A DNA stretch of 64,000 nucleotides from contig CAZCCG010000002.1 of assembly GCA_964497535.1 (NCBI GenBank), positions 169,297-233,296 on the forward strand, in the 5' to 3' direction. Source of the DNA: an uncultured Gammaproteobacteria bacterium. Lineage in GTDB: Bacteria; Patescibacteriota; Microgenomatia; Levybacterales; UBA12049. Of this stretch, positions 4,902 through 34,916 are shown piece after piece (position 1 is the stretch's first letter; every line of letters starts with the position of its first letter). The position numbers were made by a program, and so were the translations under genes. The notes under the pieces are model-generated. The model made no database searches. It saw nothing but the letters and a program-made list of their open reading frames with translations, and was not told the origin of the DNA.

Positions 4902-4960
4902 AGTGCCTCATTTTTTTTGATCTCTTGCATACTATGCTTTCTTCATTTATACTGCTTCTA

Positions 4961-5080
4961 ACATCAAGAGTGATAGATGAAATGCTATCCGGCAACCGAA
5001 GTATTTACGGTGCCAGTTCCAAATAATTGGAGATGCGGCGAGAGCAAAATACCAAAACCTCTCGCATGAGAGGTTTTTTT
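4961..5080 (+). promoter_or_regulatory. SAM-I clan (S-box-like) riboswitch leader of metK with terminator/SD-sequestering expression platform
   Basis: Conserved S-box strings ATCAAGAG (P1 5'), GATGAAA…CCGGCAACC, GGTGCCAgTTCC and AGATG (P1 3', pairs with CATC). It is followed by hairpin CCTCTC-gcat-GAGAGG (5058–5073) plus T7 (5074–5080) abutting the metK ATG. An upstream CGAGAG could form an antiterminator. Confidence 0.7.
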
Positions 5081-9085: not shown

Positions 9086-10519
9086 TCAAGGAGTTATTTT
9101 TGTAGGGGATTTGCTCACTGTTGGTTTTTGTACATAATTTTTACCAATAACAATGAGAAGATCATAGGGAGAATTAGAATTCTTCTGACCCATAGCTACC
9201 TCTGCGTTAAATTCTGTCTGTAATGACTGTATGACCTTTTTATCTACATTAGAAATAGTATAGATTTTTGTTCTGGTGAGTGACTGATCATCAAAAGTAC
9301 CGGGAGGTAATACTGAATACTTTTTTGTTTTCAATTCATTGACAGCTAACAGTGCAAGACCGGGAGTTTTCGTCCCATTATCAACTTGGATAACCGGATC
9401 AGTAATAATACTGTTGGGATTTAACGAAAAGGCAATCCATTTATGAATTGAGTCCCATTGTCCGATACCGCTTCTGGGCATCAGGATGGATTGTTTGTCA
9501 TCAGAAAATCCATCGGTGAGATAATTCTGGTCTGTCAATGCTAAATTTTTGATCGTATAGTTTTTAAAGACATTTGATTGCTTGAGAAAAAATTCTACAT
9601 CCTGTAAGGACATATCCGTACGAAAATCTTCACCTAAGGATGTCATAAAAGGTATGATTTTTGTAATAAATCCAATATCAAATACGCGCTGTTTTACCGC
9701 AACCAAAAGATTTCTCTGGCGCTTTGCCCTACCAAAATCAGTACCATCCTGAAGAGAATGGCGAGACCTCGTATATTTGAGTGCCTGTGTTCCATCCATA
9801 TGTTGCAGTCCTTTGTCAAAATGTAAATGTTCATACCGGCAGGGGAAAATCTCCGATTCATCCATGGTAGCACTGCCTGTCGCAAGTTCTGCTGAAAATG
9901 ACGCTATCTCAGTATCACTATGTCCACATGGCTCTGTCTCTTTTCCTTCAATGGGATATGAATAATCATCAAAAGCTGTCTCAACATTAATATTTACACC
10001 CTCCAATGAATCAATCGTATGCTTGAATCCGTCAAAATCAATCGCGACAAAGTTATCAATCGGCATCCCGACTACCTGTTCTACCGTCTTTTTTGCCAGG
10101 TCTCCTGCCCCAGCTTCACCTTTATACTGATCAGGTTTATTGGGATAATTACGATCGTCCATACCAATCTGATAAGCCGTATTGATCTTTTGATTTGATA
10201 ACCCTTCAATAGGAAGTTTTACCCATAAATCCCGGGGAATTGAGATAAGCGTTACTATCTTATTTTGGGAATCAACATGAGCAACTATAATAGAATCTGT
10301 TAGATAGGTGCCATCATGGTTTCCTCCTCCATAGCCGAGCATCAAAATGTTAAAGGGTTTTTTATTGGTAAATTTTTCCTGAAGATTATCCAGTTTTGGG
10401 GCAGAAGCTGAAGTATTTTTAACAAAGATCTTGTTGGAGACGTCTTTTGTTTTAAAATAGAGATACACCCCGCCTCCCATGAATAAAAGAAGCAGTATTA
10501 TGGCTACAATTTTTTTCAT
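9086..10519 (-). CDS. LytR-CpsA-Psr (LCP) family cell-envelope polymer transferase
   Basis: N-terminal TM, then FNILMLGYGGGNHDGTYLTDSIIVAHVD...LISIPRDLWV, the LCP domain core. Confidence 0.8.
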   Translation of the reverse strand: MKKIVAIILLLLFMGGGVYLYFKTKDVSNKIFVKNTSASAPKLDNLQEKFTNKKPFNILMLGYGGGNHDGTYLTDSIIVAHVDSQNKIVTLISIPRDLWVKLPIEGLSNQKINTAYQIGMDDRNYPNKPDQYKGEAGAGDLAKKTVEQVVGMPIDNFVAIDFDGFKHTIDSLEGVNINVETAFDDYSYPIEGKETEPCGHSDTEIASFSAELATGSATMDESEIFPCRYEHLHFDKGLQHMDGTQALKYTRSRHSLQDGTDFGRAKRQRNLLVAVKQRVFDIGFITKIIPFMTSLGEDFRTDMSLQDVEFFLKQSNVFKNYTIKNLALTDQNYLTDGFSDDKQSILMPRSGIGQWDSIHKWIAFSLNPNSIITDPVIQVDNGTKTPGLALLAVNELKTKKYSVLPPGTFDDQSLTRTKIYTISNVDKKVIQSLQTEFNAEVAMGQKNSNSPYDLLIVIGKNYVQKPTVSKSPTKITP

Positions 10520-10669
10520 AGAACCATATCATACCAAAAACAACCTGAAAAAATCCTGAGGAAAATGGAATACAATTTGGGATATCAAATATAAACTTAC
10601 ACACAAAGATTATAAGAAAAAATTAAAGGGGTGCTTCTTTTGAAACACCCCAAGAGGTTGTGTTAGGCT

Positions 10670-10870
10670 TTACAACGGATGCCCGAAGAAACAATGGGTA
10701 ACTTGCCAATGGTCTTGTTTACGGTACTTAGTACCACAATTGTTACACTGCAAGTACTGGAACGAGCATGAGGCATCGCCTGCACCAAGCGTTCCATGGC
10801 ACGTAATACCATATCCATCAACAAGTCCTTTGCACTTCTCGCATTGGTACGCCAGTACCGAAAGAGACAT
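10670..10870 (-). CDS. Small Cys-rich (zinc-ribbon-like) hypothetical protein inside the GC-rich islet; alternative overlapping frame 10663..10941
   Basis: CEKCKG...CNNCG paired Cys motifs; local GC elevated; weak call. Confidence 0.25.
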   Translation of the reverse strand: MSLSVLAYQCEKCKGLVDGYGITCHGTLGAGDASCSFQYLQCNNCGTKYRKQDHWQVTHCFFGHPL

Positions 10871-10913
10871 ATGCTGATGCTCCTTTCCCCAAACATCTGT
10901 TCATCAATCTCGC

Positions 10914-11096
10914 TTACCGAAGATAAATCTGAAACCTCCATGATACTAACATCCCCACAACTGGAGACGCTGCAAATACGAATGCTCCTGCTTGATGACC
11001 ATAGAATTGACCAACAAGAAGGGATGACGCCATAGCCAGGGAAACCGCTATCATCAGGAGCATAACTTTCCTTTGAGACCGTTTTTGTTCAGTCAT
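10914..11096 (-). CDS. Small hydrophobic hypothetical protein (60 aa)
   Basis: One or two predicted TM segments; in the GC-rich islet; weak call. Confidence 0.25.
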   Translation of the reverse strand: MTEQKRSQRKVMLLMIAVSLAMASSLLVGQFYGHQAGAFVFAASPVVGMLVSWRFQIYLR

Positions 11097-11250
11097 CGTC
11101 CTTCTCCCTTCAGTTCTTCGACAAACCGAGATACCCTATCAACGTACAAATCGAATTATACGAAAGCCATACAGATAATACAAATTGAGGAATTTTGTAG
11201 AATTACTTTAGCTCTATATGCCTTTATATTTCTAAGAAGACAAAAAATAG

Positions 11251-11290
11251 GGGTGGTCGAGTCCGCCAGCTGGCGGAGACTCGACCACCC
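11251..11290 (-). terminator. Intrinsic terminator-like hairpin (13-bp perfect stem GGGTGGTCGAGTC/GACTCGACCACCC with palindromic loop CGCCAGCTGGCG), U-run on minus strand
   Basis: Read directly; lies 22 nt downstream of minus-strand ORF 11312..11605 and is followed on the minus strand by CTATTTTTTG. Confidence 0.6.
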
Positions 11291-11311
11291 ACAGTGAAAG
11301 AAACTGAGAAG

Positions 11312-11605
11312 TCAATCACGAGGAGCTGCTGCAGCAAGCTCTGAGAGGCTCACTGCATACGCTGTACGACGCGCATTATGGTATGAGACGTATTTGTCGT
11401 TGATCTCCCTCTCGAACTCGAGAAACGACTGGATGACAGACTGTCCTCCAGATGAGCTATGAGGTACTTCTACCTTTACCAGAAGCAACTCACCAGTATC
11501 AAGCTGCTCCGCAAGATAGAAGTAATCCCCCCAATCCAAAGGACGAGTTCCTGGCAACCTTCCCGGGTCAAGCTCACGCCGTACCCATTGGCACGTTTTG
11601 GACAC
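11312..11605 (-). CDS. Hypothetical protein (97 aa), GC-rich islet
   Basis: ORF with higher GC than the host background and a downstream terminator; no homology recognised. Confidence 0.4.
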   Translation of the reverse strand: MSKTCQWVRRELDPGRLPGTRPLDWGDYFYLAEQLDTGELLLVKVEVPHSSSGGQSVIQSFLEFEREINDKYVSYHNARRTAYAVSLSELAAAAPRD

Positions 11606-11760
11606 AACTACTCTCCTTCCTCTTCTTGACAGAAAATCCTATCAGATTCTCTCAACCGGAGGCATTGTACTAAAAAAAGAAGATAAAAACAAATTGAAGA
11701 TTATTTATAAGAAAAGGGGGGTACAAGTCTGCACCCCCCGAAAAACGGAATAGGATACTT

Positions 11761-12225
11761 CTAATTAAGTTGTATCGAGTACTCCTCAAGCAGTGCATCC
11801 CCATCGAGGACATAGCGGGTATCAGCCCATGTGTCTCTTGTTTCAAGAGGACATGAGAGTGTTCGGCCTTCTCCTGCAAGGACCAGACTACACTTCTCAA
11901 GCCGGTTACGTCCCACATACACGAAGTGATCGAAGCATACCTGCAAGACAACCCCGTTTTCTGGCGCGTTCTGGTCGATGCTTGCGATGTACCCTACGCC
12001 ATAACGAGTCAGTAATCTCTCTTGCCATGGTTCCATCAATAGCTCGTGGGGGTAGAACCGGTATCCCCGCAATGCCCGATTGATAAGCCACACTGGTGCT
12101 ATTTGCTGGACAAGGATTACTCCCAACCAGTATGGAACAAAGCCAAAGACTTTGAGCACGTTCACGCTGCCTCCTCTTGAGTGATATACCAACGCTACCG
12201 CCATTTTATAAAAATTACTGTGCAA
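11761..12225 (-). CDS. Hypothetical protein (154 aa), GC-rich islet
   Basis: Local GC ~50% versus ~35% background; no homology recognised. Confidence 0.4.
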   Translation of the reverse strand: MHSNFYKMAVALVYHSRGGSVNVLKVFGFVPYWLGVILVQQIAPVWLINRALRGYRFYPHELLMEPWQERLLTRYGVGYIASIDQNAPENGVVLQVCFDHFVYVGRNRLEKCSLVLAGEGRTLSCPLETRDTWADTRYVLDGDALLEEYSIQLN

Positions 12226-12263
12226 TTACAAATAAAGGAAATTATACAAAGGATTGAAGAGAG

Positions 12264-13463
12264 TTAATTTTTTTGCCGGAGAAAGGCGGGGATATCCCAT
12301 ACATCTTCGTCTTCTTTAATATTCGTATCTTCCTGAGAGAAGTTTGCAGGACTTGGAGGAGTCTGCTGTGGTTGCTGCGTCTGTTGCGGCTCAGGTTGCT
12401 GATGAGTTATCGGAGTCACCGGCGGCTGGTATCTATGTTGTTCTTCCTGATGTTCTTCTTTCATCTCAGGACCACGGGGAATAGACATAAATTGCTGAAG
12501 TTTTTGTTTGTTCTGGTCAAATCCTGTGGCAACCACGGTAATTTTGAGCTGGTCATGCATTGCCTCGTTAATTGTTGCTCCAAAAATAATATTTGCATCA
12601 GGATCAGCACTTGCTGAAATAATTTTGGCTGCTTCATCAACTTCATTCATCGTCAAATCCGGCCCTCCAATAATATTAAAGAGTACTCCGCGTGCTCCGG
12701 TCATTGATATTTCCAGAAGCGGAGAAGAAATAGCTGACCGGGCTGCTGCTTGTGCACGATTTTCGCCAAATCCGGTACCAATTCCCATCAATGCCGAACC
12801 TGCATCAGTCATAATAGTTCGTACATCGGCAAAATCGACGTTGATCAGTCCCGGCATGGTGATCAAATCTGAAATTCCCTGTACACCCTGGGTCAACACG
12901 GAATCCGCTACTTTGAATGCTTCAAGAAGCGACATTTTTTTATCTACAACATCCAGAATTCTTTGGTTGGGAATAACAATCAGGGTATCTACTTTATCTT
13001 TGAGGTTTTCAATCCCATCTTCCGCCTGGACAAAACGGCGAGTTCCTTCAAAAGAAAAAGGCTTGGTAACAACCGCTACGGTAAGCGCTCCAACTTCTTT
13101 TGCAATTCGTGCTACAACTGGAGTAGCCCCTGTACCGGTGCCGCCACCCATTCCTGCTGTCAAAAAGACCATATCTGATCCCTCAAGCATGTCTTTAATT
13201 TTCTCTTCTGATTCTTCAGCAGCTTGGCGTCCCATTTCAGGATTGCCCCCGGATCCAAGTCCTTTGGTTAATTGATCACCAATTTGAAGTTTGCCATCTG
13301 CGGGACATCCCAGAAGTGCTTGAGCATCAGTATTGACTGCTACGAAATCAACGCCATTAATACTTGCCGAGGAAATCATTGAAGCGAGAGCATTGTTGCC
13401 ACCTCCACCAATACCCACAACCCTGATTTTTGCAAAATTTGAAGTAGTTGGTTTGATCAGCAT
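12264..13463 (-). CDS. ftsZ: Cell division protein FtsZ
   Basis: [22 protein letters not shown] tubulin signature, C-terminal DIPAFLR tail. Confidence 0.95.
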
Positions 13464-13518
13464 AGGAGTGATAGCATCCTAGCAGATACAACTGGAGATT
13501 GCAAGTATACTTCATAGC

Positions 13519-14385
13519 TTAGGTATATAGTATTCGTGCATTGTTATCTGCGGATAATGACATTGTAAGATGTTCTAATGACATCCATATAATTCCTCTT
13601 TCTGAGTCAATTACCTGGATATCCATTTCACCATTTGTCTGTACCTGATATCCTGCAACACAAACTGAATGTCTCCCAACTACATCTTTATCCAAATAAA
13701 TATGATTCGACATAACAGCTAAAAGAACTGCTTGGGTATCTAAGATATTTTTTATGAGTTTTGCATTCGCACCAATCTTAGACTCATTTATTTCACTTGT
13801 TGATCCGATATAGCTTATCGTTGTGGCAAACTCTCCGTGTGATGAAACATATTCTTTCCCTACTATTCGTATGGGTTGCGTAGTTTTGTGAAGCCCAGGT
13901 AAAGAACTAATTTGAACTTCTTCATACCTTTGCCTGGCACTCATTTCTTCTAATTCTTCATATGTCATCCCTCCTCTTTTTGATTTTTCTATGTCAATTG
14001 CAAAGTTAAGCAAATCCATAGTAAATTGTGTTTTTGGACGGATTCCTAAAGCCTTCATACCGCTGGCAAATGACCAGGGTAAGCAAGTTGGTTCTATTCC
14101 CTGGTAATACCATCCCCCGGTATAAACGTGGGATGAGGCAGGACAGGCTGTAAGAGTACGGTTAGAATCAGCCAGACTTCGTTCAAAAACAGCTAGATCC
14201 TGTGCAGATGCTTTTAATTCCAGAGGGGGCAATGGATGATCAAGAAGTCGACTTACTGTCTGCCTATCATAATCAAATCCATACCCTGTCCCAATAAGAT
14301 CAGATCCAAACAAACGGATATTTGGTTTTTCTTGGGCACCAACCTCAAAAAAGTAGGATATATCTGCTTCCCGAGCAATAGCCAT
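13519..14385 (-). CDS. Hypothetical protein between ftsA and ftsZ; possible papain-fold cysteine peptidase
   Basis: 288 aa; Cys context PTCLPWSFASG and His context GRHSVCVAGYQ resemble C1/C39-like catalytic dyad motifs; speculative. Confidence 0.4.
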   Translation of the reverse strand: MAIAREADISYFFEVGAQEKPNIRLFGSDLIGTGYGFDYDRQTVSRLLDHPLPPLELKASAQDLAVFERSLADSNRTLTACPASSHVYTGGWYYQGIEPTCLPWSFASGMKALGIRPKTQFTMDLLNFAIDIEKSKRGGMTYEELEEMSARQRYEEVQISSLPGLHKTTQPIRIVGKEYVSSHGEFATTISYIGSTSEINESKIGANAKLIKNILDTQAVLLAVMSNHIYLDKDVVGRHSVCVAGYQVQTNGEMDIQVIDSERGIIWMSLEHLTMSLSADNNARILYT

Positions 14386-14418
14386 AAAACGAGGTATTAT
14401 ACCATGGAAATTCTATCG

Positions 14419-15738
14419 TTAGGGGATGAAGGATTTCAGAAGATTAACAACTTTTTTAACCATCTTTCCGCTTGGCATACCTCCAAGTCGTGGCATAGAA
14501 AATCCGAGAGGAAGTGACTTACCACCGCCGGTATCTTGTTTTGCCCCGTAAATCAAAAGCCCGACTCCTGCTGAAAAAGCAGGGCTATTGATCTCATCAA
14601 TCAAACCCTTTAGACCGGTTGGCATACCGACTCGTACCGGCATCGCAAGCATTCGCTTGGCAGATTCTGAAATTCCTACTGTCAATGATCCCCCACCTGT
14701 TATTACTAACCCTGCAGGAGTTTGACCTCCATATCCGCTCTTTTTAATCTCAAGTCCAATCATTGTGAATATTTCATTTAGTCGTGGGCGTATAATACCG
14801 TCAACCAATGTTTTTCGGGAAACCTTGTGTAATTCTTCAGGAAGTTCCAATACACCCAAATCTACTTCATCACTGATGGATGCCAAATCAGCCCGCTTCA
14901 CGGTACGACCCATCATCGTTTCTTCTGTATCTTCCGGCATGACAATTTTTTTCTGTGGCTCAGACAAAAATAATTTGATTTTCTCAGCACTTTCCAGAGA
15001 AAGCCGTAAACCGATTGCCAAATCATTGGTAATATGACGAGCACCAATAGGCAGAACTGAAGAATATGCAATTGCTCCATCAACATAAATAGAGATATCG
15101 GTAGTTCCCGCTCCCATATCTACCAAAACTACCCCTAATTCCTTCTCAGTATCGGTAACCACGGCAAGACTACTGGAATATCCACTAAATACGATACTAT
15201 CCACATCTACTCCTACTTGTGACAGTGCTTTTTCAAGATTACGCAAAGCAGTACTGCTTGCTGTTATGATATGGGTATCTACCTCCAACCGTACCCCTGT
15301 CATGCCAATCGGATCTTTGATACCATCTTGCCCATCTACCGAATAGTTACGCGGCAGTACGTGGATAATTTCTCGTGTTGAAGGCAATGAAATGGCTCGA
15401 GCAGCATCTATAACGCGTTCAACATCGTTACTGATAATCTCTCCATCAGGCTTGGAAACTGCTACAACTCCATGAGAATTTTGGCTTTCAATATGACCGC
15501 CACCGATAGAAGCCGTAACATGAGCCACAGAATAACCGGCCATTCGCTCCGCAGCTTCGATTGAGGAATTTATTGCAGCTACTGCTTCTTCAATATCAAC
15601 GATTTGTCCTTTTTTTATTCCTAAGGCTCGAGTCTCTGCAACTCCCAAAACATTGATTTCTTCATCAATTTTGGCAATTATCGTAACGATTTTCGAGGTC
15701 CCAATATCAACTCCAACAACTATCTTTCCATCTGTCAT
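14419..15738 (-). CDS. ftsA: Cell division protein FtsA
   Basis: Actin-fold N-terminus IVVGVDIGTSKIVTIIA; 439 aa; position upstream of ftsZ. Confidence 0.92.
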   Translation of the reverse strand: MTDGKIVVGVDIGTSKIVTIIAKIDEEINVLGVAETRALGIKKGQIVDIEEAVAAINSSIEAAERMAGYSVAHVTASIGGGHIESQNSHGVVAVSKPDGEIISNDVERVIDAARAISLPSTREIIHVLPRNYSVDGQDGIKDPIGMTGVRLEVDTHIITASSTALRNLEKALSQVGVDVDSIVFSGYSSSLAVVTDTEKELGVVLVDMGAGTTDISIYVDGAIAYSSVLPIGARHITNDLAIGLRLSLESAEKIKLFLSEPQKKIVMPEDTEETMMGRTVKRADLASISDEVDLGVLELPEELHKVSRKTLVDGIIRPRLNEIFTMIGLEIKKSGYGGQTPAGLVITGGGSLTVGISESAKRMLAMPVRVGMPTGLKGLIDEINSPAFSAGVGLLIYGAKQDTGGGKSLPLGFSMPRLGGMPSGKMVKKVVNLLKSFIP

Positions 15739-16202: not shown

Positions 16203-17312
16203 TTAATGCACTACCTTCTGTACTTGCTCAAAGATTTTTAAAGCTGCGGCAGGATGAAGAAGTTGTTTCCCTTTCTGCGCTGCTTTTTCGTATTCTTCTT
16301 TCCTATTGTACATATTCTTTAGAAGTTCGTACACTCGGTCAACCGATGCATCATCTTGCAGCACTACTCGTGCAAACCCCAAAGACGCAACCATTTGGGC
16401 ATTTTTCAATTGTTCACCGCGTTGACCATAGGGTAAGGGAATAAAAAGTGCCGGTTTTCCAAAATACAAAACCTCGGTTACCGTATTAATCCCGGCTCTG
16501 CCCAAAACAATATCTGCTTGGTGAAAAACACTGCCAATCTGCCCAGGACTGATAAATTTGGTAGCAACGTAGCGCTTCGCAAGCTTTGGGGAAAGACCAT
16601 CGACCACTTTTTGTAATCGGTCATAGTCGTTATACTGATGTGAATCTCCGGTCTGATGAATAATACGAAATGTTTGGAGCAATCTTTCAAGTCCTGAAAC
16701 AATCAGCATATTGATAAAATGTGCTCCTCCGCTCCCCCCGGTTACATACAAAAGCGGCACTTTCTCCTCGGAAATTTGAAATTGAAAATTTGAAATTGAA
16801 AATTTTTTCAGAGGATTACCCGTCAACACCGTTTTGCCTTTTGGAAAAAATTCTTCAGATTCTTTCCAGGAGATACAAATAGTTTTTGCAAAACGGCTGG
16901 CAAGTTTATTGGCAGCGCCTGCCTCAAGCGTTTGTTCATGAATCACCACAGGAATACCCAAAGTCTTTGCTGCCAACGTCACTGGAACTGCTACGTATCC
17001 ACCAAAAGAAAGGATACAATCAGGTTTGTATTTGCCCAAAATCAAAAGCGCCTGGGCATACCCATAGGGAATCTTCAAAATTGAAGGAATAGTATGGATG
17101 GTTAATGATCGTTGGACTCTTCCTGTTGTTAAAGCCTGAAAATTCCACTGCTCTATTTCTGCCGTTTTATACTCCAAAGAAAGAGCTTGATCACCCTCAA
17201 AGGTATACTTTCTTCCAATAAGTAAAAAGTCAACATCTTTTGGCAGTATTTTTATGACTGCATATGCTGCTGCGAAATGTCCTCCTCCCCCTGCTGTAAT
17301 AACAATTTTCAT
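16203..17312 (-). CDS. murG: UDP-GlcNAc:MurNAc-pentapeptide-PP-undecaprenol GlcNAc transferase MurG
   Basis: MKIVITAGGGGHFAAAYA (N-domain G-loop), GGSGGAHF (C-domain); contains an in-frame low-complexity insertion FSISNFQFQISEEK in the inter-domain linker. Confidence 0.9.
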   Translation of the reverse strand: MKIVITAGGGGHFAAAYAVIKILPKDVDFLLIGRKYTFEGDQALSLEYKTAEIEQWNFQALTTGRVQRSLTIHTIPSILKIPYGYAQALLILGKYKPDCILSFGGYVAVPVTLAAKTLGIPVVIHEQTLEAGAANKLASRFAKTICISWKESEEFFPKGKTVLTGNPLKKFSISNFQFQISEEKVPLLYVTGGSGGAHFINMLIVSGLERLLQTFRIIHQTGDSHQYNDYDRLQKVVDGLSPKLAKRYVATKFISPGQIGSVFHQADIVLGRAGINTVTEVLYFGKPALFIPLPYGQRGEQLKNAQMVASLGFARVVLQDDASVDRVYELLKNMYNRKEEYEKAAQKGKQLLHPAAALKIFEQVQKVVH

Positions 17313-19554: not shown

Positions 19555-20604
19555 TCAGTAGCCTCGTTTTATACGCCAAATGGTTTCAATGGTGTAATTC
19601 TTCCAATAGAGGGGAGATGTCGGTAAATCCTGAGCATGAATTAAATTTACTCGTCTTCCGCCAAATCCTGTTTTAAATAACGTTAAACCGTGCCATGGAT
19701 GCTTTGGTTTTTCAGGCGGAACTACCCCCCAAAAATTATAGATAGTTTTCCCCTGCCTTTTTGCTTCTTTGATTGCTTCCCATTGAATTAGGTATGCCCC
19801 GGGAATATCTTTATATTCATCGGCTGAAGCACCATGATGATAGACTGCCTGATTTCCATAGTAAATGACTAAAGCACCGGCAATAATGTTAGAATTATGC
19901 CGGGCTACAAATAACTTTGCCATTTTATTGTTGACGAAAATATCAAATTCTTCTCTCAAACCCCGATGAGGAATAAAATTATGACGCTTGGAAGTCCGCT
20001 CATACAGATCCATAAACTCTTCAAAATCTTTGGCTGTCCCGGCACTGCTTATCTCAACACCCAGGTTTTGTGCACGTCTTACCAGATACCTCGTTGTTTT
20101 TCGCATTCCTGCCATAATTTCTTGCTCATCCTGACTCAGATCCAATACCCAGGCATTTTCAGCATCCATATTGTGAACTGGTGCATTTCTAAATCCTCGT
20201 TTTACAAAAAAGGGCATATCTGCATGTTCTTCTTCAATAACAGGAGATATACGAATGAATTCAATCTTTTTATGCCGACATCGATTTTTAAGGTCTTCCA
20301 AAAGTACATCAAAACTGTTTTCAAAATGGGTTAACACTGGTCCGTGACGAAGATGGAAATAATGAGCACGTTTTGCTTTTATCTCAACGAGTTGGGCAAT
20401 ACCTACCAGTGTATTTTCATTAAAGATTCCAATACGATTAACCTCATGACCTACTCTTTTTTGAACCTCTCCCCATTTCCACGACTGAAAAAAAGGAGTA
20501 TAAGCGATGTTACTCCTCAACAAAAATTGTTCCCAAATGGTTTCATTTGATATATCGCGAACTTTTAGCATATGACTGTAATAATGATACAATTTTTTTG
20601 ACAT
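19555..20604 (-). CDS. FemAB-family peptidoglycan interpeptide-bridge aminoacyltransferase (FemX-like)
   Basis: FemAB-type N-terminus (FFQSWKWGEVQK), ~350 aa, acyltransferase fold pattern. Confidence 0.7.
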   Translation of the reverse strand: MSKKLYHYYSHMLKVRDISNETIWEQFLLRSNIAYTPFFQSWKWGEVQKRVGHEVNRIGIFNENTLVGIAQLVEIKAKRAHYFHLRHGPVLTHFENSFDVLLEDLKNRCRHKKIEFIRISPVIEEEHADMPFFVKRGFRNAPVHNMDAENAWVLDLSQDEQEIMAGMRKTTRYLVRRAQNLGVEISSAGTAKDFEEFMDLYERTSKRHNFIPHRGLREEFDIFVNNKMAKLFVARHNSNIIAGALVIYYGNQAVYHHGASADEYKDIPGAYLIQWEAIKEAKRQGKTIYNFWGVVPPEKPKHPWHGLTLFKTGFGGRRVNLIHAQDLPTSPLYWKNYTIETIWRIKRGY

Positions 20605-21793
20605 CCTGTGTGGACATTCGGGGATAAGTAGGAAGATTAACGATAGTTACAGCAAGATGCCTTGCTTGAGGTGTCAAAGCCGGATAAAAATGAATTTTTT
20701 CAAATTGTACCCCTTTGGGATCAATAATATTGGCATACCACGTACCCAAATATATATTATTTTTTTTGAAAAGCTCCAATAGATCCTCCCGATGATGACA
20801 CAGGATAGGAAATCTCAAGTAAGGTATCTCTTGAGTAGATGGTAATTCAAATGAAGAACCGGCAAGTTCCTTTTGGTATTGAGTGGAGATTTGAATTCTT
20901 TTTTTATTATATTCAGCAATTTTGCGTAATTGAGACAGAGCAAGGATACACAAAGCATTCGGCATTTTTCTCACAAATAGCTCACTTCGATTTGAGCGTT
21001 TTTCACCTATAGTTACCGGCATCGAGAGCAAATGCAGACGTTGTAATACTACCAGTATTACTTTGCCCAACGATAAAACCGTATAGAAGGGTAAAATAAT
21101 GCCAAAAGCAAGTGGATGCAGAAGCTGTTGAAAAATCCAAAAAAATCCCGGGTATTCTTGTTTTTTCTGAAATTGTCGAAGCGTATTCCCCAATGTTTTA
21201 TCATTTGTAATTGCCATTCCTCCAAATACACTGGAAAAAGCCTTATCTCTCCCAAAACTAAAAAAAGCTGCATCTCCAAACGTTCCTAATTTTTTACCAT
21301 CATATGTTCCCCCTACAGTATGCGCACAATCTTCAATAATAAGCAGGTTATGTTTCTTGGCAATTTTTTTGATCTGATCCATTTGGGAGGGAATTCCAAA
21401 GGTATGCTGTACCAAAATTGCTTTTGTCTTTGATGTAATGTTTTTTTCAATAGTATCGGGATTGATTGTCCCATCAAAAAGGACATCTACATATACCGGC
21501 TTTGCGCCTGCCCAAATGATCGCATTTGGCACGGCAACACAAGTAAATGCTTGCAACAACACTTCGTCTTTCTCTCCAATTTCCATTGCTTTTAATAAAC
21601 TATAAAAAGCAGACCGACCGCTATTAAATGATATTGCATATGACATGGAGAAATAGTTACGAAACCACTGTTCAAGTTTGCCTATAGAATCACCTGAAAA
21701 ATAATTCCAGGGACGGAGAATAGCTCCGAATGTTACTGCTATATCATCAGGTTGTGTGTTGGGGGATAAACCAGGAGCTATAGGAAATGCCAT
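20543..21793 (-). CDS. DegT/DnrJ/EryC1/StrS-family PLP-dependent sugar aminotransferase
   Basis: AFTCVAVPNAIIWAGAKPVYVDV and SFGRDKAFSS (PLP-lysine region) typical of the DegT family. Confidence 0.7.
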   Translation of the reverse strand: MAFPIAPGLSPNTQPDDIAVTFGAILRPWNYFSGDSIGKLEQWFRNYFSMSYAISFNSGRSAFYSLLKAMEIGEKDEVLLQAFTCVAVPNAIIWAGAKPVYVDVLFDGTINPDTIEKNITSKTKAILVQHTFGIPSQMDQIKKIAKKHNLLIIEDCAHTVGGTYDGKKLGTFGDAAFFSFGRDKAFSSVFGGMAITNDKTLGNTLRQFQKKQEYPGFFWIFQQLLHPLAFGIILPFYTVLSLGKVILVVLQRLHLLSMPVTIGEKRSNRSELFVRKMPNALCILALSQLRKIAEYNKKRIQISTQYQKELAGSSFELPSTQEIPYLRFPILCHHREDLLELFKKNNIYLGTWYANIIDPKGVQFEKIHFYPALTPQARHLAVTIVNLPTYPRMSTQDVKKIVSLLQSYAKSSRYIK

Positions 21794-21795
21794 AG

Positions 21796-23433
21796 TTATG
21801 CTTTCCTCACTTTCGTCACAATAACGCGGGGAATACCTTTTCCCATCATCACACTAATATCACCTTTTTTTGTATTGTTTACAACAAAATCAGTAATCTC
21901 CTCTATTGTTCCCGTTTTCACTTTACATTCCCCTTTTCCATCAGTAATTCCCTGAGTAATTTCTTTGTAAAAGTTTTTATTGACGAGAAAGAGATAATCG
22001 CATATAACAGAGATTGCTTTTGCAACTCTATAGTGTTCTTCTTTTCCTTTTTTCCCAAGTTCAATCATTGGTTCCAATATGAAAATTCTCTTGCCTTTAT
22101 ATTGCTTTATATACTCAAGCGTTGCAATCACACTATCAGGATTTGCATTAAATGTATTATCTAAAATATGGGATCCGTTTGAAAGTTCACTTCGAACCAT
22201 CGTATGAGGCAGCGGCGTTAGCTTGGATACGGCTGTTTTTATTTCCATATCGGACATTCCCAAATAGTCAGCTAGATAAATAGCGGGAAGAATATTTTCA
22301 ACCATATGGAGCCCAATCAATGATGTTTTTAAATGCAGTATTTTTTTTCTCAACTGCACATCAAAGTGAGTTCCATCCTCCTGGCCAGAGATATTATAGG
22401 CAACAATGTCCCCCAATTTCCCTACATTTGTTAATACTGTCTTTTTTGCCGATGATATAACTCTCCGATAGAGGACTTTTTTCTTTGTTGTATTTTTGTA
22501 TAGTTGAAAAACACGTTCGTTATTTCCGTTAAAAAGTGCCAAACCGTTTCTAGGAAGCGATTCAATTAATTCATATTTGGTTTTTTCTATATTTTCAATA
22601 CTTCCAAACAATGATAAATGTTGGCCTGCTATTGCTGTAAGTACACCGATTTTAGGACGGGCAATTGCACACAGCTCCGCGATTTCTCCTTTTTTATACG
22701 CTCCCATTTCTGCCACAAATATCTGAGTATTATTTTTTAATCCTTTCAAAATAGTATATGCTACCCCGATTGGAGTATTATCGGAATACTTTGTTTTTAA
22801 TACCTCGAATTTATGGGAGAGAACCTGGGCAATAAATTCCTTGGTAGAACTTTTTCCATAGCTGCCGGTAACTCCAATTACTAACAACTTTTCACTTTTT
22901 AAAATTTTTTTGGTTGCCCGCTCAATCTGGTAATCCTTGTAAAGCACCGTCGGCAAGGATACCGCAAAAACAACACATCCAACAACAAAAGGCAAAAGAA
23001 TATCCAAAATCATTAACCATACAAATGGATCTGTAGTAAGAGGAATGAGAAACAATGTAGTATAAATGTAAATTACTATCCCAATTAAAAGAAGCGCTTT
23101 TGTAGTAAATTTCGGACGCCGGAATGTATGAGTTAACAGTTCGTGGATAACCGCAACTCCTTCAATGAGTAATACAAGAGTAACAACTATTTGATAGAGT
23201 ACGAGAAAAAGTGGGTTATATACTGCAAATGCAAATCCTAATATCAGAATCCATTTGAAAATCGCATAAAATGAAAAAAGAATACTCTTACCACTGTGCG
23301 TTTCTGAAAGCTCTGCAAATAGCCGATCATACCGGTATTCCCGCCGTTGCCATAAAGACACCCAAAAAAAGGTGTTGCGTACTACCCATAAGAGAAAACT
23401 GACTGCGGCAATATAATATAAAACAGTAATCAT
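21796..23433 (-). CDS. murF: Mur ligase family protein (MurF-like D-Ala-D-Ala adding enzyme) with ~170-aa N-terminal polytopic membrane domain
   Basis: C-terminal two-thirds has the Mur ligase P-loop VIGVTGSYGKSSTKEF; the N-terminal ~170 aa contain 4–5 hydrophobic helices. Confidence 0.7.
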   Translation of the reverse strand: MITVLYYIAAVSFLLWVVRNTFFWVSLWQRREYRYDRLFAELSETHSGKSILFSFYAIFKWILILGFAFAVYNPLFLVLYQIVVTLVLLIEGVAVIHELLTHTFRRPKFTTKALLLIGIVIYIYTTLFLIPLTTDPFVWLMILDILLPFVVGCVVFAVSLPTVLYKDYQIERATKKILKSEKLLVIGVTGSYGKSSTKEFIAQVLSHKFEVLKTKYSDNTPIGVAYTILKGLKNNTQIFVAEMGAYKKGEIAELCAIARPKIGVLTAIAGQHLSLFGSIENIEKTKYELIESLPRNGLALFNGNNERVFQLYKNTTKKKVLYRRVISSAKKTVLTNVGKLGDIVAYNISGQEDGTHFDVQLRKKILHLKTSLIGLHMVENILPAIYLADYLGMSDMEIKTAVSKLTPLPHTMVRSELSNGSHILDNTFNANPDSVIATLEYIKQYKGKRIFILEPMIELGKKGKEEHYRVAKAISVICDYLFLVNKNFYKEITQGITDGKGECKVKTGTIEEITDFVVNNTKKGDISVMMGKGIPRVIVTKVRKA

Positions 23434-24149
23434 TGGATAAACTTTAAAACCTCCTCGGCAAATTTTTGAGGATACTCATATGGCAACTTATGTGTCGCCT
23501 CAGGTACCACTACATAAGTCGCACCCGGAATATACTCTGCAATCTCTTTTCCTATTATCAATGGTACAAATGTATCCTGTCCTCCCCATACTACCAATGT
23601 TTTTGTATGGATAGTTGGCAAAAGTGAAAGCAAGTCCTCATGAATGACTTTTTTGAATGTTTCTTTCAGACCTCCTGCTTTATAATAATCCCACTCTCCC
23701 AACAACTGATATGTCCCTTTTTTAAAGAGATCTGAAACTTCTTTTGGAAGGATATCCACAACTTGTTTGCCTGATTTTGCAATAGAGGAGATAACTTGTT
23801 TTTTCAATGATAATTTTTTTCTGATAAGCGGTGAACCGGTCAAAATCAGAGCTTGAACCAGCTGCGGATTTTGAGCGGACAATTTAGCAGCAATCCTTCC
23901 TCCAAATGAATGACCAATTAAAATTACTTTTTTCAACTGTTTCTTTATCATAAATTCTTTGACAAAATCAACATAGTCATCTAAATCCATACCTGGTTTG
24001 GTCAAAGGTTGCTTACCAAACCCGGGCAAATCTGGAGTAAAAACCGCAAACCCTTTTTTTTCAAGAATAGATTTGAGCTCGGAATAGCGATCCCCAGTCA
24101 TTGTTGTTGCCCATCCATGCAGGATGATAATTGGATATTTTTGTTTCAT
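23430..24149 (-). CDS. Alpha/beta-hydrolase fold protein
   Basis: Nucleophile elbow GHSFGG; ~240 aa. Confidence 0.75.
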   Translation of the reverse strand: MKQKYPIIILHGWATTMTGDRYSELKSILEKKGFAVFTPDLPGFGKQPLTKPGMDLDDYVDFVKEFMIKKQLKKVILIGHSFGGRIAAKLSAQNPQLVQALILTGSPLIRKKLSLKKQVISSIAKSGKQVVDILPKEVSDLFKKGTYQLLGEWDYYKAGGLKETFKKVIHEDLLSLLPTIHTKTLVVWGGQDTFVPLIIGKEIAEYIPGATYVVVPEATHKLPYEYPQKFAEEVLKFIQ

Positions 24150-24150
24150 A

Positions 24151-25911
24151 CTATTTAACTGTTACGCTTTTTGCAAGATTACGAGGTTTATCAGGATCAA
24201 ACCCTTTCTTCAATGCAAGATAATAACCCAAAAGTTGTGCAGGAATGATTTGAGGAATGATAGTTGCCTGTCCAACATCGTGTACTTCAATCCAATAATC
24301 AAAAATAGGAGAATTTTTTGAAGAAACTCCAATAATAATACCTCCCCGTGATTTAATTTCCATTGCATTTGATAACATTGCTTCATATGTTTGATCCTGT
24401 GGCGCAAAGACAATACAAGGAGTTCCCTCGGAGATCAAAGCGAGTGTCCCATGTTTGAGTTCTCCTCCTGCCAATCCTTCCGTATGAATATAGCTCACTT
24501 CTTTTATTTTAAGTGCCGCCTCCAAAGCGGTAGGAAGTGAAATTCCTCTCCCAATGGTATATAAATGTTCTTTTTTTGAAAGTAATTCAATAATGGGTTC
24601 AAGCTTTTCAATATTTTTTTTCTCCAAAAGCCGTTCTATCTCCTCAGCAGCTTTATCCAGAAGCGTTATAGATTCATTTACTTCTCCTTTTACCGCATAG
24701 GCAAGCATAAGAAGGATAGAAAGTTTGGCAATATATGCTTTTGTTGAAGCCACTGCTTTCTCAGGTCCTGCTCCAAGAAGCAATTTATAGTCTGCAAGTC
24801 TATATATTGTTGATCCTAAAACATTGGTGATAGCCACAATTTTACTTCCCTTTACTTTTGCGTGATTAAGTGGCTCTACAACATCGATTGTTTCACCGGA
24901 TTGAGATAAAGCAATTACCAAACTTTTTTTGTTGAGAAAATCTTCTAAATAATTAAATTCGGATGCGAAAGATGTATTTACATGCTTATGAGCTAATGTA
25001 GAAAACCAATACACCCCTGCCAAACAAGCATGGTATGCAGTTCCTGCAGCAATAAAAAATGTCCCTTTTGCCTCTGTTACAATTTTCCCCAAACTCTGGA
25101 CTTGTTGTCCATACTCATGCGCTATATTACGAATTACTTTTGGTTGTTCGTAAATTTCTTTTAGCATGAAATAATCATAAGTACCTTTATCTGCATCTTC
25201 TACTTTCCACGTAATTGTTTCAAAAGTTGGTTTAATTTTTGTGCCTTGAGGCATTTGCAGCAATTGTAAATCTTTACCGAGCACTACCATTTCATTATCT
25301 TTTAAAAATAACAGTTCTCTTGTATATTTAATAATTCCTGCTGCGTCTGATGCGATAAAATATTCATCATTTGTTTTTCCAACAATCAGCGGAGAGCCAT
25401 TTTTGACTGCAACAATTTCTTTCGAGGGGGCATATGCAACAACGATCGCATTCAATCCTTTTAGTTGGTTAAATGCATCACGAACAGATGAAGTAAATCC
25501 TTCTTTTTTTAGATTTTCTTCAATGAGATGACATACTATTTCAGTATCTGTTTCTGAAATAAATGTGTGACCTTTTTTTTGAAGTTGGGTTCTGAGTTCT
25601 GCGAAATTTTCAATAATTCCGTTGTGAACTACAGCTAAATCTTTGTTACAATCTAAGTGTGGATGTGCATTCTCTGTCGTAACCCCACCATGAGTTGCCC
25701 ATCGCGTATGACCAATACCAATTTCACTGTCTGCTAAGTTAACAGTAGCATTTCCAATTTTCCCGGTATGTTTATCAACAACAAGTTTTCCGCCATCCTT
25801 AACAGTTATTCCCCAAGAATCATATCCTCTGTATTCCAGAAGTTTTAATCCCTCAAGTACAATGGCTGCCGCATTTTTTCTCGTACCGATGTATCCAAAT
25901 ATTCCACACAT
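24151..25911 (-). CDS. glmS: Glutamine--fructose-6-phosphate aminotransferase (GlcN-6-P synthase)
   Basis: MCGIFGYIG Ntn-amidotransferase start, two SIS domains, 586 aa. Confidence 0.95.
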   Translation of the reverse strand: MCGIFGYIGTRKNAAAIVLEGLKLLEYRGYDSWGITVKDGGKLVVDKHTGKIGNATVNLADSEIGIGHTRWATHGGVTTENAHPHLDCNKDLAVVHNGIIENFAELRTQLQKKGHTFISETDTEIVCHLIEENLKKEGFTSSVRDAFNQLKGLNAIVVAYAPSKEIVAVKNGSPLIVGKTNDEYFIASDAAGIIKYTRELLFLKDNEMVVLGKDLQLLQMPQGTKIKPTFETITWKVEDADKGTYDYFMLKEIYEQPKVIRNIAHEYGQQVQSLGKIVTEAKGTFFIAAGTAYHACLAGVYWFSTLAHKHVNTSFASEFNYLEDFLNKKSLVIALSQSGETIDVVEPLNHAKVKGSKIVAITNVLGSTIYRLADYKLLLGAGPEKAVASTKAYIAKLSILLMLAYAVKGEVNESITLLDKAAEEIERLLEKKNIEKLEPIIELLSKKEHLYTIGRGISLPTALEAALKIKEVSYIHTEGLAGGELKHGTLALISEGTPCIVFAPQDQTYEAMLSNAMEIKSRGGIIIGVSSKNSPIFDYWIEVHDVGQATIIPQIIPAQLLGYYLALKKGFDPDKPRNLAKSVTVK

Positions 25912-25913
25912 AG

Positions 25914-26363
25914 TTAGGTATTTCCTCCTAAATAGATACGATAATCATTTGTATCTCTTTTTTCAAAACCAAGTGATTCATATAATCTATTTGCGGCAAC
26001 TCGAGTAGGATTAGACGTGAGATCAATATGATGTATTCCCTCTTTTTTTGCCATCTCAAGAAGTTTTTTGACCAAAAGAGTCCCTACTCCTTTTGATCTG
26101 TGGTTATCATCAACAAAAACATCCTGAATCCATCCTCTTTTGCCACTTAAAGCAGGTGACATAATAAGCGTTATGGTACCTATTATCTCCTCCCCCTCCA
26201 GAGCTACAAAAAGTTTTACCGAAGGGGCTACCAACAAACCTTTGAGATAATTTTCTGTCAATTGAAGCAACTGCGGATTTAACTCTTTTATAAATCTGTT
26301 GAGAGTTTCTAAAAGATATGGTGAATAGGTATCTATTTGTTGAACATTGATATTTTTTTCCAT
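25914..26363 (-). CDS. GNAT-family N-acetyltransferase (possible GNA1-like glucosamine-phosphate N-acetyltransferase)
   Basis: GNAT motif A region RSKGVGTLLVKKLLEMAKKEG; function inferred from genomic context. Confidence 0.7.
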   Translation of the reverse strand: MEKNINVQQIDTYSPYLLETLNRFIKELNPQLLQLTENYLKGLLVAPSVKLFVALEGEEIIGTITLIMSPALSGKRGWIQDVFVDDNHRSKGVGTLLVKKLLEMAKKEGIHHIDLTSNPTRVAANRLYESLGFEKRDTNDYRIYLGGNT

Positions 26364-26364
26364 A

Positions 26365-27138
26365 TTATGCTGTCTCTGAAGAAGCAGTTGAGATATGATT
26401 TAGGCTGGTAAATAATTTCTCAGCTTCTTCCAGTTCTTCTTTTGTATTTACACCCTGCCATGAAAGCTTTCCACCCTGTACTGTTGCAATTTTTTGATTA
26501 TGTTTCATTGCCGTATCAATCAAACTGGTAAGATAATATTCTCCGGTAACGGGACTTTTTTCAACTTTCGCAAGATATTTACTGAGAAAAGTTCTACTAA
26601 ACACATAGCAAGCCGGATTAATTTCATGGATTTGTCTTTGTTCCAATGTGGCATCTTTTTCTTCAACAATTGCTGTTACTTTTCCACCAAGATCGCGTAC
26701 TACCCGTCCCAGACCTGTTGGGTCATCTTTTTCAATCGTTAGAAATGTAACCGCAGCAGATGAATTAAAATGAGTATCTATTAATTTATTTAAAATTTCT
26801 TTGCTATAAAAAGCAGAGTCATCTCCTCCTAAAACAAGTACATCTGTAATTGATGGCGGTAATTTCTTCAATCCGCAAAATACAGCATGAGCTGTTCCCA
26901 ACCGTTTTCTCTGTTCTGCAAAAAGCACCGATGTCCCTGATAATGCTTTCATTACTGATTCTTTTGCAAACCCGACAACAACAACAATGTTTTGCAGCTG
27001 TAAACTTTCCAGAAGCAAAATCGAGTGCAGGATCATCGGTTTGTCCGCAAGGGAAACGGCAACTTTATTGATATCCTTGGCTTTCATACGTTTTCCTTTA
27101 CCTGCAGCCATAATAATAGCTCCAATATGTTCTCTCAT
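26365..27138 (-). CDS. Sugar-1-phosphate nucleotidyltransferase (GlmU N-terminal uridyltransferase-like; no LbH acetyltransferase domain)
   Basis: GAIIMAAGKGKRMK signature of GlmU/RmlA-type nucleotidyltransferases; only 257 aa. Confidence 0.75.
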   Translation of the reverse strand: MREHIGAIIMAAGKGKRMKAKDINKVAVSLADKPMILHSILLLESLQLQNIVVVVGFAKESVMKALSGTSVLFAEQRKRLGTAHAVFCGLKKLPPSITDVLVLGGDDSAFYSKEILNKLIDTHFNSSAAVTFLTIEKDDPTGLGRVVRDLGGKVTAIVEEKDATLEQRQIHEINPACYVFSRTFLSKYLAKVEKSPVTGEYYLTSLIDTAMKHNQKIATVQGGKLSWQGVNTKEELEEAEKLFTSLNHISTASSETA

Positions 27139-28469
27139 AATTCATCCTCTTTCTCACGAACAATGTCAGCCCCAAGATTAGTCAGACGCTGCTCAAATCG
27201 TTCATATCCTCGGTCGAGCTTTTCAACTCCAAAAATAGTACTTGTTCCACGAGCGGCCAATGCAGCCAATACCACTGCTGCACCTGCACGAATATCAAGC
27301 GTTGTAAGAATTGCATTGTGTAGTTGAGTAGGACCGGTTATACGAACCGCGTGGAAATACTCCGGACTGTCATCTTCCAGATTGAAATTGTATAGGTGCT
27401 CCCGGTTACCAACCTCAGGGTTATATAACTCCATCTGTGCACCCATTTTTTTCAAATCTTTTACATATCCCATTTTATTCTCAAATACTGTTTCATGTAC
27501 TGTTGAAACTCCATCAGCTTGAGTCATAAGTACTGCCCATGGAGCTTGCCAATCCGTCATAAATCCCGGATAAATAGCAGTAGCTACATCAGTCGCCTTC
27601 AAGGTATTTCTAAAGAAAAATCGTATTCCTTCTCCTTTGGACTCATATTCTCCTCCCACACTTTGAAGTTTTTGTAAAAAGGCTTCCAGGTTGACATTTT
27701 TTACATTCTCAACAAAAATATCTCCTTTGGTAACCAGCGCCGCAATTGCAAATGTCACAATTTCGTTTCTATCCGGACTAATGGTAAATTCTGCACCATG
27801 AAGTTTTTGTACCCCTTTGACTGTTATTTGTCGTTTTGCAGTACGTTTTATATCTGCTCCCATCAAATTAAGCAGGGTCATTAAATCATCAATTTCCGGC
27901 TCTTGGGCTGCATTCTCAAGCACTGTAGTACCTTCTGCGCAAACGGAAGCCAGAATCAAAGTCTCGGTACCGGTATGAGTATTTTTTTCAAATGTATAGT
28001 CAATCCCCTTGAGTCCCGTGGTTTTAGCATGAAAATAACCATCATCACTCATATAGGTTATATCGGTATTCATTTTGGCTATGCCTTCTATAGTCCGATC
28101 AATTGGACGAGCACCTAACCGGCATCCACCTGGATTTGGAATAATTGCCTCATGGGTACGAACCAACAGCGGAGCAATAAACATGGCAGAAGTTCTGGCA
28201 AGTGCTGCTTTTTCCAGAGAAATCGAGGAGGTTTTGAATTGTTGCATTCTAATTTTAGCTGTATGTCCCGTCACGACAACCTGAGCTCCTAACTCTTTCA
28301 TGATATCTACCATCACAAAAAAATCAGAGATATGAGGAACATTATGGATAATAACTTCTTCATCAGTAAGGCATGCGGCAACAAGCACCTTCAAGGCTAC
28401 ATTTTTTGCTCCTGATACAGCAACTGTACCACTGAGTCTTTTACCACCTGTTACGACAAACTTTTCCAT
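27135..28469 (-). CDS. murA: UDP-N-acetylglucosamine 1-carboxyvinyltransferase
   Basis: MEKFVVTGGKRLSGTVAVSGAKNVALKVLVAACL is the canonical MurA N-terminus; 444 aa. Confidence 0.95.
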   Translation of the reverse strand: MEKFVVTGGKRLSGTVAVSGAKNVALKVLVAACLTDEEVIIHNVPHISDFFVMVDIMKELGAQVVVTGHTAKIRMQQFKTSSISLEKAALARTSAMFIAPLLVRTHEAIIPNPGGCRLGARPIDRTIEGIAKMNTDITYMSDDGYFHAKTTGLKGIDYTFEKNTHTGTETLILASVCAEGTTVLENAAQEPEIDDLMTLLNLMGADIKRTAKRQITVKGVQKLHGAEFTISPDRNEIVTFAIAALVTKGDIFVENVKNVNLEAFLQKLQSVGGEYESKGEGIRFFFRNTLKATDVATAIYPGFMTDWQAPWAVLMTQADGVSTVHETVFENKMGYVKDLKKMGAQMELYNPEVGNREHLYNFNLEDDSPEYFHAVRITGPTQLHNAILTTLDIRAGAAVVLAALAARGTSTIFGVEKLDRGYERFEQRLTNLGADIVREKEDEL

Positions 28470-32919: not shown

Positions 32920-33028
32920 AATGGTAATGTATCAAATTGTATTTTTTATATTATAGCTGAAATACCGACACCGTGCAGACTTGGAAAACCCTTCGTAATA
33001 CCAAAAAATCACCGTCGGAAAATAAAGC

Positions 33029-33060
33029 GGGCAAGGAACAGCCTACACTATTCCTTGCCC
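33029..33060 (-). terminator. Hairpin (10-bp stem GGGCAAGGAA/TTCCTTGCCC, 12-nt loop) downstream of island gene, weak U-run
   Basis: Read directly; lies 31 nt downstream of the minus-strand stop at 33092. Confidence 0.4.
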
Positions 33061-33091
33061 AGTGAGAAGATTGAAACCACTCAGTGGCTGA

Positions 33092-33781: not shown

Positions 33782-34030
33782 GAGTACCTCCTTCTGTCAT
33801 ACCCTCCACGTTTTATCAGAAAGTGTGTTGGTTTTCTCCTCTCACTTGTAAATGTACCCTAAACCACAAAGCCAAAACACAAGGTTTTGGCAGCAGTTAT
33901 ATGTGAAAATCTCTCACTGGTATCAATCCGTATTGATGCCAGAATCAAGATTGTGAGAGAGGGTCTTGATAGATATCTTCCTCAAACGTCAAGCCGCATA
34001 TATGGCTTGTGTGTGGAAAGTATCTTGGGT

Positions 34031-34063
34031 GGGTTGGGGCCGAGTCTAACTCGGCCCCAACCC
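34031..34063 (-). terminator. Very stable GC hairpin (14-bp perfect stem GGGTTGGGGCCGAG/CTCGGCCCCAACCC, loop TCTAA) without U-tract
   Basis: Read directly; 16 nt downstream of the minus-strand stop at 34079; resembles U-tract-less terminators of high-GC bacteria. Confidence 0.5.
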
Positions 34064-34078
34064 GGATATGTAATGCAG

Positions 34079-34825: not shown

Positions 34826-34916
34826 TTCTTCCTTCCACTATTCGTAGGAGACATGGCGCGATGCCATATCTCATGGAGGTTTGGTAACACTCCCCATCCA
34901 CATCAGAGGATCCTTT

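Follow-up and report, generated by a model that had tools for sequence, protein, structure and literature searches.

What are the four small open reading frames (ORFs) that stand between ftsZ and a LytR_cpsA_psr (LCP) gene in this genome of an uncultured member of the Patescibacteria (Microgenomates group), and where did they come from? They lie in the interval 10520-12263 (~1.7 kb) of the window, by which we mean the whole 64,000-nucleotide (nt) stretch of contig CAZCCG010000002.1 that was analysed, and they are bounded by two intact genes, ftsZ (12264-13463, minus strand) and the LCP gene (9086-10519, minus strand). The four ORFs, here called orf134, orf97, orf60, and orf66 after their lengths in amino acids (aa), are all on the minus strand and are arranged in three compact units. 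We conclude that this islet is probably lineage-specific, horizontally acquired ORFan cargo, that is, a group of short genes without homologues, which forms three self-contained units in a variable spot after the division and cell wall (dcw) gene cluster.

Base composition and Shine-Dalgarno usage

A reading of the same DNA from its letters alone (the sequence-only reading) had described the segment 10620-12240 as a foreign-looking insertion with a GC content of about 50%. The overall value is lower, 46.1% as compared to a mean of 39.5% for the window, and the higher figure holds only for two local peaks in 400-nt windows, 49.5% at 11201-11600 and 51.5% at 11801-12200. Windows of equal size with at least the GC content of the segment make up 8.8% of the total, nearly all of them inside a GC-rich island at 33-38.7 kb, and the segment ranks third in the window by GC, the two richer windows both lying within that island. 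The GC content of ftsZ is itself 44.8%, the local rise being thus partly common to this gene.

The robust anomaly of the islet is the GC content at third codon positions (GC3), not that of the whole segment. The GC3 values of orf134, orf97, orf66, and orf60 are 0.533, 0.480, 0.478, and 0.377, respectively, while the 43 host genes with 150 aa or more have a mean of 0.300 ± 0.036 and a range of 0.217-0.359. When chunks of host genes matched in length were drawn, the islet value was reached in none of 20000 draws for orf134, in none of 20000 for orf97, and in 0.2% of the draws for orf66, and the excess is accordingly significant for three of the four ORFs (P ≤ 0.002).

The second anomaly concerns the Shine-Dalgarno (SD) sites. 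SD-like motifs are present 5′ of all four islet ORFs, and the four genes in the 33-38.7 kb island likewise all have one. In the host genes, an SD-like pentamer precedes 6 of 43 when the start of the longest ORF is taken and 12 of 43 when any start within 25 codons is allowed, a rate of at most 28%. Fisher tests of the eight GC-rich ORFs against the host give P = 5e-6 with the longest-ORF starts and P = 2e-4 with the lenient count, and the four islet ORFs alone give P = 0.01 against the lenient count. An SD site is also lacking at ftsZ in 11 relatives. The host thus appears, judging from its start regions, to use SD sites rarely. The claim of a foreign-looking composition is therefore upheld in quantitative terms, since GC3 and SD usage differ from those of the host and the composition is not the same as that of the flanks.

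It can be mentioned here that several host genes, namely purA, LCP, and orf288 (a 288-aa ORF between ftsA and ftsZ, see below), show a -10-like box at a distance of just ~10-15 nt from the ATG. This spacing hints at short-leader or leaderless mRNAs. A literature search on SD usage in Patescibacteria returned no directly relevant paper. If the present interpretation is correct, the occurrence of SD-led foreign genes in a largely SD-less host would offer a cheap marker of recent acquisitions in genomes of this kind, in addition to GC3.

These results bear on the possibility that the ORFs are native or de novo orphan genes whose odd composition stems from their own history and not from transfer, which we consider improbable. 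Such an origin would agree with the absence of a donor in our searches (see below), with the host-like GC3 of orf60, and with the non-coding pieces between the islet ORFs, which have 33-47% GC against ~39% for the window. However, genes that arose de novo from host non-coding DNA (~33-37% GC) would be AT-rich rather than GC3-rich, the GC3 values of 0.48-0.53 fall outside the whole host range of 0.22-0.36, and the same combination of high GC3 and SD sites is found in the clearly inserted 5.7 kb island.

This island (33000-38700, minus strand, 53-58% GC) is located between a Mur ligase gene (31708-32919) and a gene similar to those of penicillin-binding protein/FtsI (38863-40542), and contains four genes coding for proteins of 229, 248, 651, and 588 aa, all with a strong SD site and with GC3 of 0.41-0.60. 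The 651-aa protein gives a weak match to a GHKL ATPase (HATPase_c_3), and the 588-aa protein is encoded with an internal repeat of ~44 nt in three copies. No significant PADLOC or PHROG matches and no close family hits were obtained for the island, which was recovered only from the same sequencing runs as the islet. The two elements are alike in their high GC3, in the strong SD site on every gene, in being co-oriented with the dcw genes, and in their location at a gene junction. They differ in that the island genes are larger (229-651 aa), and no sequence similarity between the island and islet proteins was found.

Three small units between ftsZ and the LCP gene

The features of the islet are listed below in the direction of transcription, all of them on the minus strand.

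12203..12231, minus strand: promoter-like TTGTAA-17-TAAAAT in the ftsZ-orf134 spacer, found by consensus scan
11761..12165, minus strand: orf134, GTG start at 12165, 134 aa, hydrophobic helix at the N-terminus, then a C-terminal domain of ~100 aa
11716..11739, minus strand: intrinsic terminator after orf134, 10-base-pair (bp) stem with 7 G-C pairs followed by a T-run, -20.6 kcal/mol, z = -4.4
11664..11692, minus strand: promoter-like TTGTTT-17-TACAAT upstream of orf97, found by eye and below the scan threshold
11312..11605, minus strand: orf97, GTG start at 11605, acidic (isoelectric point, pI, 5.3) and predicted to be soluble
11251..11290, minus strand: strong hairpin 3′ of orf97, an intrinsic terminator with a U-run behind it, -33.9 kcal/mol, z = -6.4
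11155..11183, minus strand: promoter-like TTGTAT-17-TATAAT upstream of the orf60-orf66 operon, found by eye
10914..11096, minus strand: orf60, ATG start at 11096, a basic (pI 11) small predicted membrane peptide
10670..10870, minus strand: orf66, ATG start at 10870, Cys-rich with a CxxC...CxxC pattern, resembling a zinc ribbon
10628..10651, minus strand: intrinsic terminator that closes the orf60-orf66 unit before the LCP gene, found by scan, -17.7 kcal/mol, z = -4.6

The short minus-strand ORFs of the sequence-only reading, including those of 154 and 97 aa, a Cys-rich one, and a hydrophobic one, are thus all present. The first of them, however, most likely starts at GTG 12165 and not at its outermost start, giving 134 aa. 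At this position the start is preceded by AGGAGG (12175-12170) at a distance of 4 nt. The other available starts are TTG 12225, which gives the maximal ORF of 154 aa, and ATG 12204, which gives 147 aa; the gene callers on the public contigs chose 134 or 147 aa. The stop codon of ftsZ is followed by an AT-rich spacer of 98 nt before orf134, and the terminator scan of the minus strand from 12263 to 12166 found none between the two genes. The hydropathy maximum of orf134 (19-residue window) is 1.71 and is located at residue 1.

The second unit contains orf97 alone, with the SD site GGAAGGAGAG at 11620-11611, 5′ of its start. The hairpin that follows it, at 11290-11251, had been described as a 13-bp stem that ends the GC-rich segment. 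It is indeed a strong terminator, but its place is mid-segment, 3′ of orf97, two more terminators being present in the islet, and its minimum-energy fold has 11 + 6 pairs separated by a 2-nt bulge.

The third unit is the only one with two ORFs. The start of orf60 is preceded by the SD-like sequence AAGGGAGAAGGA at 11110-11099, and the protein has one clear transmembrane segment (residues ~9-32), a second, moderately hydrophobic one (~36-55), and a hydropathy maximum of 2.34. After a gap of 43 nt comes orf66, with AAGGAG at 10885-10880, 9 nt 5′ of its ATG. The CxxC motifs of orf66 are at residues 10-13 and 42-45, ~30 residues apart, and its matches to zinc-ribbon profiles are weak, all of them below the cut-offs. 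The frame itself is contested, as an alternative-frame ORF of 92 aa (orf92, 10663-10941) overlaps orf66 and was the one chosen by the public gene calls. The codon models do not separate the two, both having negative scores, and we prefer orf66 because it has an SD site and the Cys motif.

Are these ORFs genes? Of the dinucleotide shuffles made from the interval, 0.7% contain an ORF that reaches 154 aa or more, and 1.7% a second one that reaches 97 aa or more. Chance alone often yields ORFs of 60 aa or more (~2 per strand), but just 0.3% of these contain a pair of CxxC motifs. The in-frame codon scores of orf134, orf97, and orf60 exceed those of both shifted frames with the host as well as the island codon model, and the island model fits orf134 and orf97 better than the host model. 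The three terminators have folding z-scores of -4.4 to -6.4, whereas those of the ORF bodies (-0.7, -1.6, and -1.9) are unremarkable relative to shuffled controls.

In view of these numbers, we consider it quite improbable that the islet is a non-functional remnant or a non-coding element, with chance or decaying frames or a structured RNA. Its proponent could cite the lengths of 60-66 aa, which are common by chance, the negative codon scores of orf66 and orf92, the low-confidence single-sequence AlphaFold2 models of orf134 and orf97 (predicted local distance difference test, pLDDT, of 48 and 42, respectively), and the lack of any sign of selection. Decay or chance would nevertheless have to produce four non-overlapping ORFs on one strand, each with an SD site at the correct spacing and bracketed by terminators, together with the higher in-frame scores of three of them and two lengths that are rare in shuffles. 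As to a structured RNA, Rfam gave nothing relevant in the whole window at the gathering thresholds, nor in 10400-14500 at E ≤ 1, where the sole match was a chance one to JUMPstart. With no Rfam family and with unremarkable folding z-scores of the ORF bodies, a structured non-coding RNA was rejected.

The sequence-only reading had also raised the possibility of a small toxin/antitoxin-like or membrane-peptide module. In such a scenario the small peptide encoded by orf60 would damage membranes, and the product of orf66 (or orf97) would neutralise or regulate it. The third unit lends itself to this, being one bicistronic unit between a promoter-like site and a terminator, its first product a basic hydrophobic peptide of 60 aa and its second carrying a CxxC...CxxC pair that is non-random; the zinc-binding domains of some antitoxins carry such a pair. 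The likeness to type II toxin-antitoxin modules ends with two small, adjacent ORFs in one unit, since the first cistron encodes a membrane peptide, no toxin or antitoxin domain is detected, and no DNA-binding domain is recognised. No toxin, antitoxin, or defence profile in Pfam, NCBIfam, PADLOC, or PHROGs was matched even at E ≤ 1. In addition, orf134 and orf97 form separate monocistronic units, so that of the three units only orf60-orf66 is a possible pair, and even there the second cistron is uncertain (orf66 or orf92). We regard this explanation as unlikely, and the earlier suggestion finds no support here.

Homologues, relatives and the position after ftsZ

The homology searches yielded essentially only the islet itself. 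No true homologue of orf134 is found among 5.8 billion protein clusters or 1.84 billion representatives; the two extra matches from the full HMMER scan of the latter are translated tandem-repeat junk and were discarded as spurious. In the word-indexed protein searches, orf134 (also in its 154-aa form) and orf97 matched only their own identical copies, that of orf97 being from the same population, and orf66 had no candidate. For the islet proteins, nothing above noise was obtained from Pfam, NCBIfam, PADLOC, PHROGs, or the PDB sequences, and the IMG/VR, INPHARED, and Joint Genome Institute (JGI) metagenome scans gave no islet match. A tblastn search with the four proteins concatenated against phage and plasmid records had no match at E ≤ 1. 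The islet proteins have no paralogues elsewhere in the window.

Identical proteins and DNA are found in the separately assembled runs SRR9179560, SRR9179562, and SRR9179563, and the contigs from these three runs match the window with 100% identity over the junctions from ftsZ-orf134 to orf66-LCP. This is of direct relevance to an assembly chimera joining the DNA of another organism, for which the sharp compositional contrast with the flanks might be taken as a sign. Since the same junctions were assembled separately three times, with ftsZ and the LCP gene intact, we consider such a chimera extremely unlikely and in effect ruled out.

The comparison with relatives comprises 80 ftsZ loci. The FtsZ of the window has at most 72-73% identity to those of Levyibacteriota and other Patescibacteria metagenome-assembled genomes and 66% to that of Gottesmanbacteria; the closest locus, with 73% FtsZ identity, is too distant to time the gain of the islet. 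The four islet ORFs are absent from all 80 loci, both at this position and elsewhere in the loci, in agreement with the lack of conserved orthologues that a foreign insertion implies. No match to LCP or purA is found in these loci either. A metagenome scan for closer relatives by means of the LCP protein returned only distant LCPs, none adjoining ftsZ, with a best full-length identity of at most 32% and one 50-residue segment of 48%.

In the close relatives examined (loci L001-L010), the conserved dcw gene order ends at ftsZ. The first gene 3′ of ftsZ is a different one in every lineage examined, being an NYN domain gene, a Lipoprotein_15 gene, a peptide deformylase gene, genes of no known family, or a phage-type integrase gene, and beyond the variable stretch there is usually a large gene (~950-1000 aa), which we assign to ileS solely on the basis of its N-terminal sequence. 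As conservation of the order does not extend past ftsZ and what follows is variable, the islet is located at a variable spot on the edge of the dcw cluster and not inside it, contrary to what had been proposed on the basis of the window only.

In a member of the Gottesmanbacteria (UBA5942, locus L006), the gene directly downstream of ftsZ (11306-12328 of that locus) codes for the phage-type integrase (PF00589, E = 3e-32), which fits the position after ftsZ being a site of integration or turnover in the group.

The proximity to ftsZ calls for consideration of a further alternative, namely that orf134 is co-transcribed with ftsZ and is a lineage-specific division or envelope accessory, a membrane-anchored partner of the Z-ring in the place that the ylm/sepF/divIVA genes occupy after ftsZ in Gram-positive bacteria. 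The location of orf134 directly after ftsZ with no terminator between them and its hydrophobic N-terminal helix are compatible with this, and in three relatives (L002-L004) the protein encoded directly after ftsZ also has a hydrophobic N-terminus, although it is not homologous to orf134. On the other hand, the profile searches assign none of the islet proteins to SepF, DivIVA, ZapA, ylm, or any other family, orf134 is not conserved in any relative, and an old, integrated division function is disfavoured by the foreign composition and the SD usage. We therefore find this explanation clearly unlikely.

Two other differences in gene content were noted within the dcw cluster of the window. The first is orf288 (13519-14385, minus strand), located between ftsA and ftsZ and without family hits, where every close relative examined (L001-L015) has a gap of ~45-170 nt with no room for a gene. 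Unlike the islet, orf288 has a host-like GC3 (0.27) and no SD site, and these features give it the appearance of an insertion into the dcw operon core that is older or native. The second is a block between an mraY-like gene and the gene at 26368-27141, comprising among others the ORFs at 19558-20646, 20546-21853, 21799-23475, and 24154-25944, which is missing in three of the four closest relatives (L001, L003, and L004); the content of the dcw cluster hence varies within the clade.

Origin and possible role of the islet

According to the interpretation that we favour, that of horizontally acquired cargo, the genes would have come from an unsampled donor with a higher GC content and regular SD use, as suggested by their composition and start sites; the most plausible one would be a phage or mobile element from within the same community. 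Each unit has a -35/-10-like pair 5′ of a strong SD site, then one or two small ORFs with an intrinsic terminator behind them, and is predicted to be expressed autonomously in the manner of phage morons. orf134 might in addition be reached by read-through from ftsZ, and the terminators would insulate the downstream LCP gene. As to the products, two with hydrophobic segments, one acidic and soluble, and one zinc-ribbon-like, their predicted properties weakly suggest accessory envelope-associated cargo of the exclusion, immunity, or toxin type, which we weakly favour over core division functions.

A number of observations weigh against acquisition by transfer. The GC3 of orf60 (0.377) does not differ significantly from that of the host (P = 0.13). 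The window contains no tRNA gene, no flanking direct repeats or target-site duplications are found at the islet, and no recombinase, transposase, or phage gene is called on the public contigs covering the islet and its flanks. The protein, IMG/VR, JGI metagenome, phage, and plasmid searches revealed neither a donor nor a homologue, so that the argument for horizontal transfer is carried by composition and SD usage alone. All copies are 100% identical and thus provide no variation that would show purifying selection. Finally, the promoter scan finds 1 promoter-like site as compared to 3.8 in shuffled sequence, and two of the three promoter-like sites were located by eye, below the scan threshold.

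The organization of the islet can be compared with that of several known systems. Phage morons are autonomous promoter-gene-terminator units between genes, often of deviant base composition, a concept that reportedly goes back to Hendrix and colleagues. The islet units resemble them in having their own promoter-like site, SD site, and terminator and in being inserted, co-oriented and with deviant composition, between two intact genes. Unlike morons, they are located in a bacterial chromosome, have no phage genes around them, and match no PHROG or phage database entry. With ORFan islets in general they share short homologue-less genes of atypical codon usage that are absent in relatives and are placed at a breakpoint of gene order, but the present case is very small (1.7 kb) and lacks an integrase, a tRNA gene, and flanking repeats. 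It also deviates from the usual trend in composition, as acquired ORFans are usually AT-richer than their host whereas the islet is GC-richer.

In integron cassettes, small ORFan genes likewise share one orientation and have an imperfect hairpin after each of them. In the islet, however, the hairpins are followed by U-runs, as in terminators, and each gene has its own promoter-like site. A regular-expression search for the attC core pair RYYYAAC...GTTRRRY gave 0 matches on either strand, and no integrase gene is called on the public contigs covering the islet and its flanks.

We have also considered a more far-reaching scenario in which the islet, orf288, and the 5.7 kb island belong to one class of co-oriented foreign cassettes, specific for dcw gene junctions in a lineage with low SD use. 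Such cassettes would exploit operon read-through and supply small modulators of envelope or division, e.g., a membrane-anchored FtsZ partner, of relevance to an episymbiotic lifestyle. Within this class the islet and the island are SD-led and orf288 is not, and we hold the scenario to be very improbable.

If the assignment of the islet as acquired cargo is correct, it would constitute one more case of gene flux into the genomes of Patescibacteria and would indicate that turnover takes place even at the margin of the dcw cluster, highly conserved as it is. The islet adds four singleton protein families to the pool of uncharacterised small proteins; it is of an ordinary type and opens no long-standing question.

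Some other features of the window were recorded in the course of the analysis. A SAM-I/IV riboswitch is found at 4956-5061 on the plus strand, upstream of the gene for S-adenosylmethionine synthetase, with a score of 44.2 bits (gathering score 41.1). The window also contains AT-rich repeats, short tandem and inverted ones, at 1172-1243, 1271-1380, and 16756-16804, the first of which is an array of the heptamer TAGCAGT, while 'GAAATTGAAAATT'-type repeats with a 53-nt inverted pair are located at 1274-1380.

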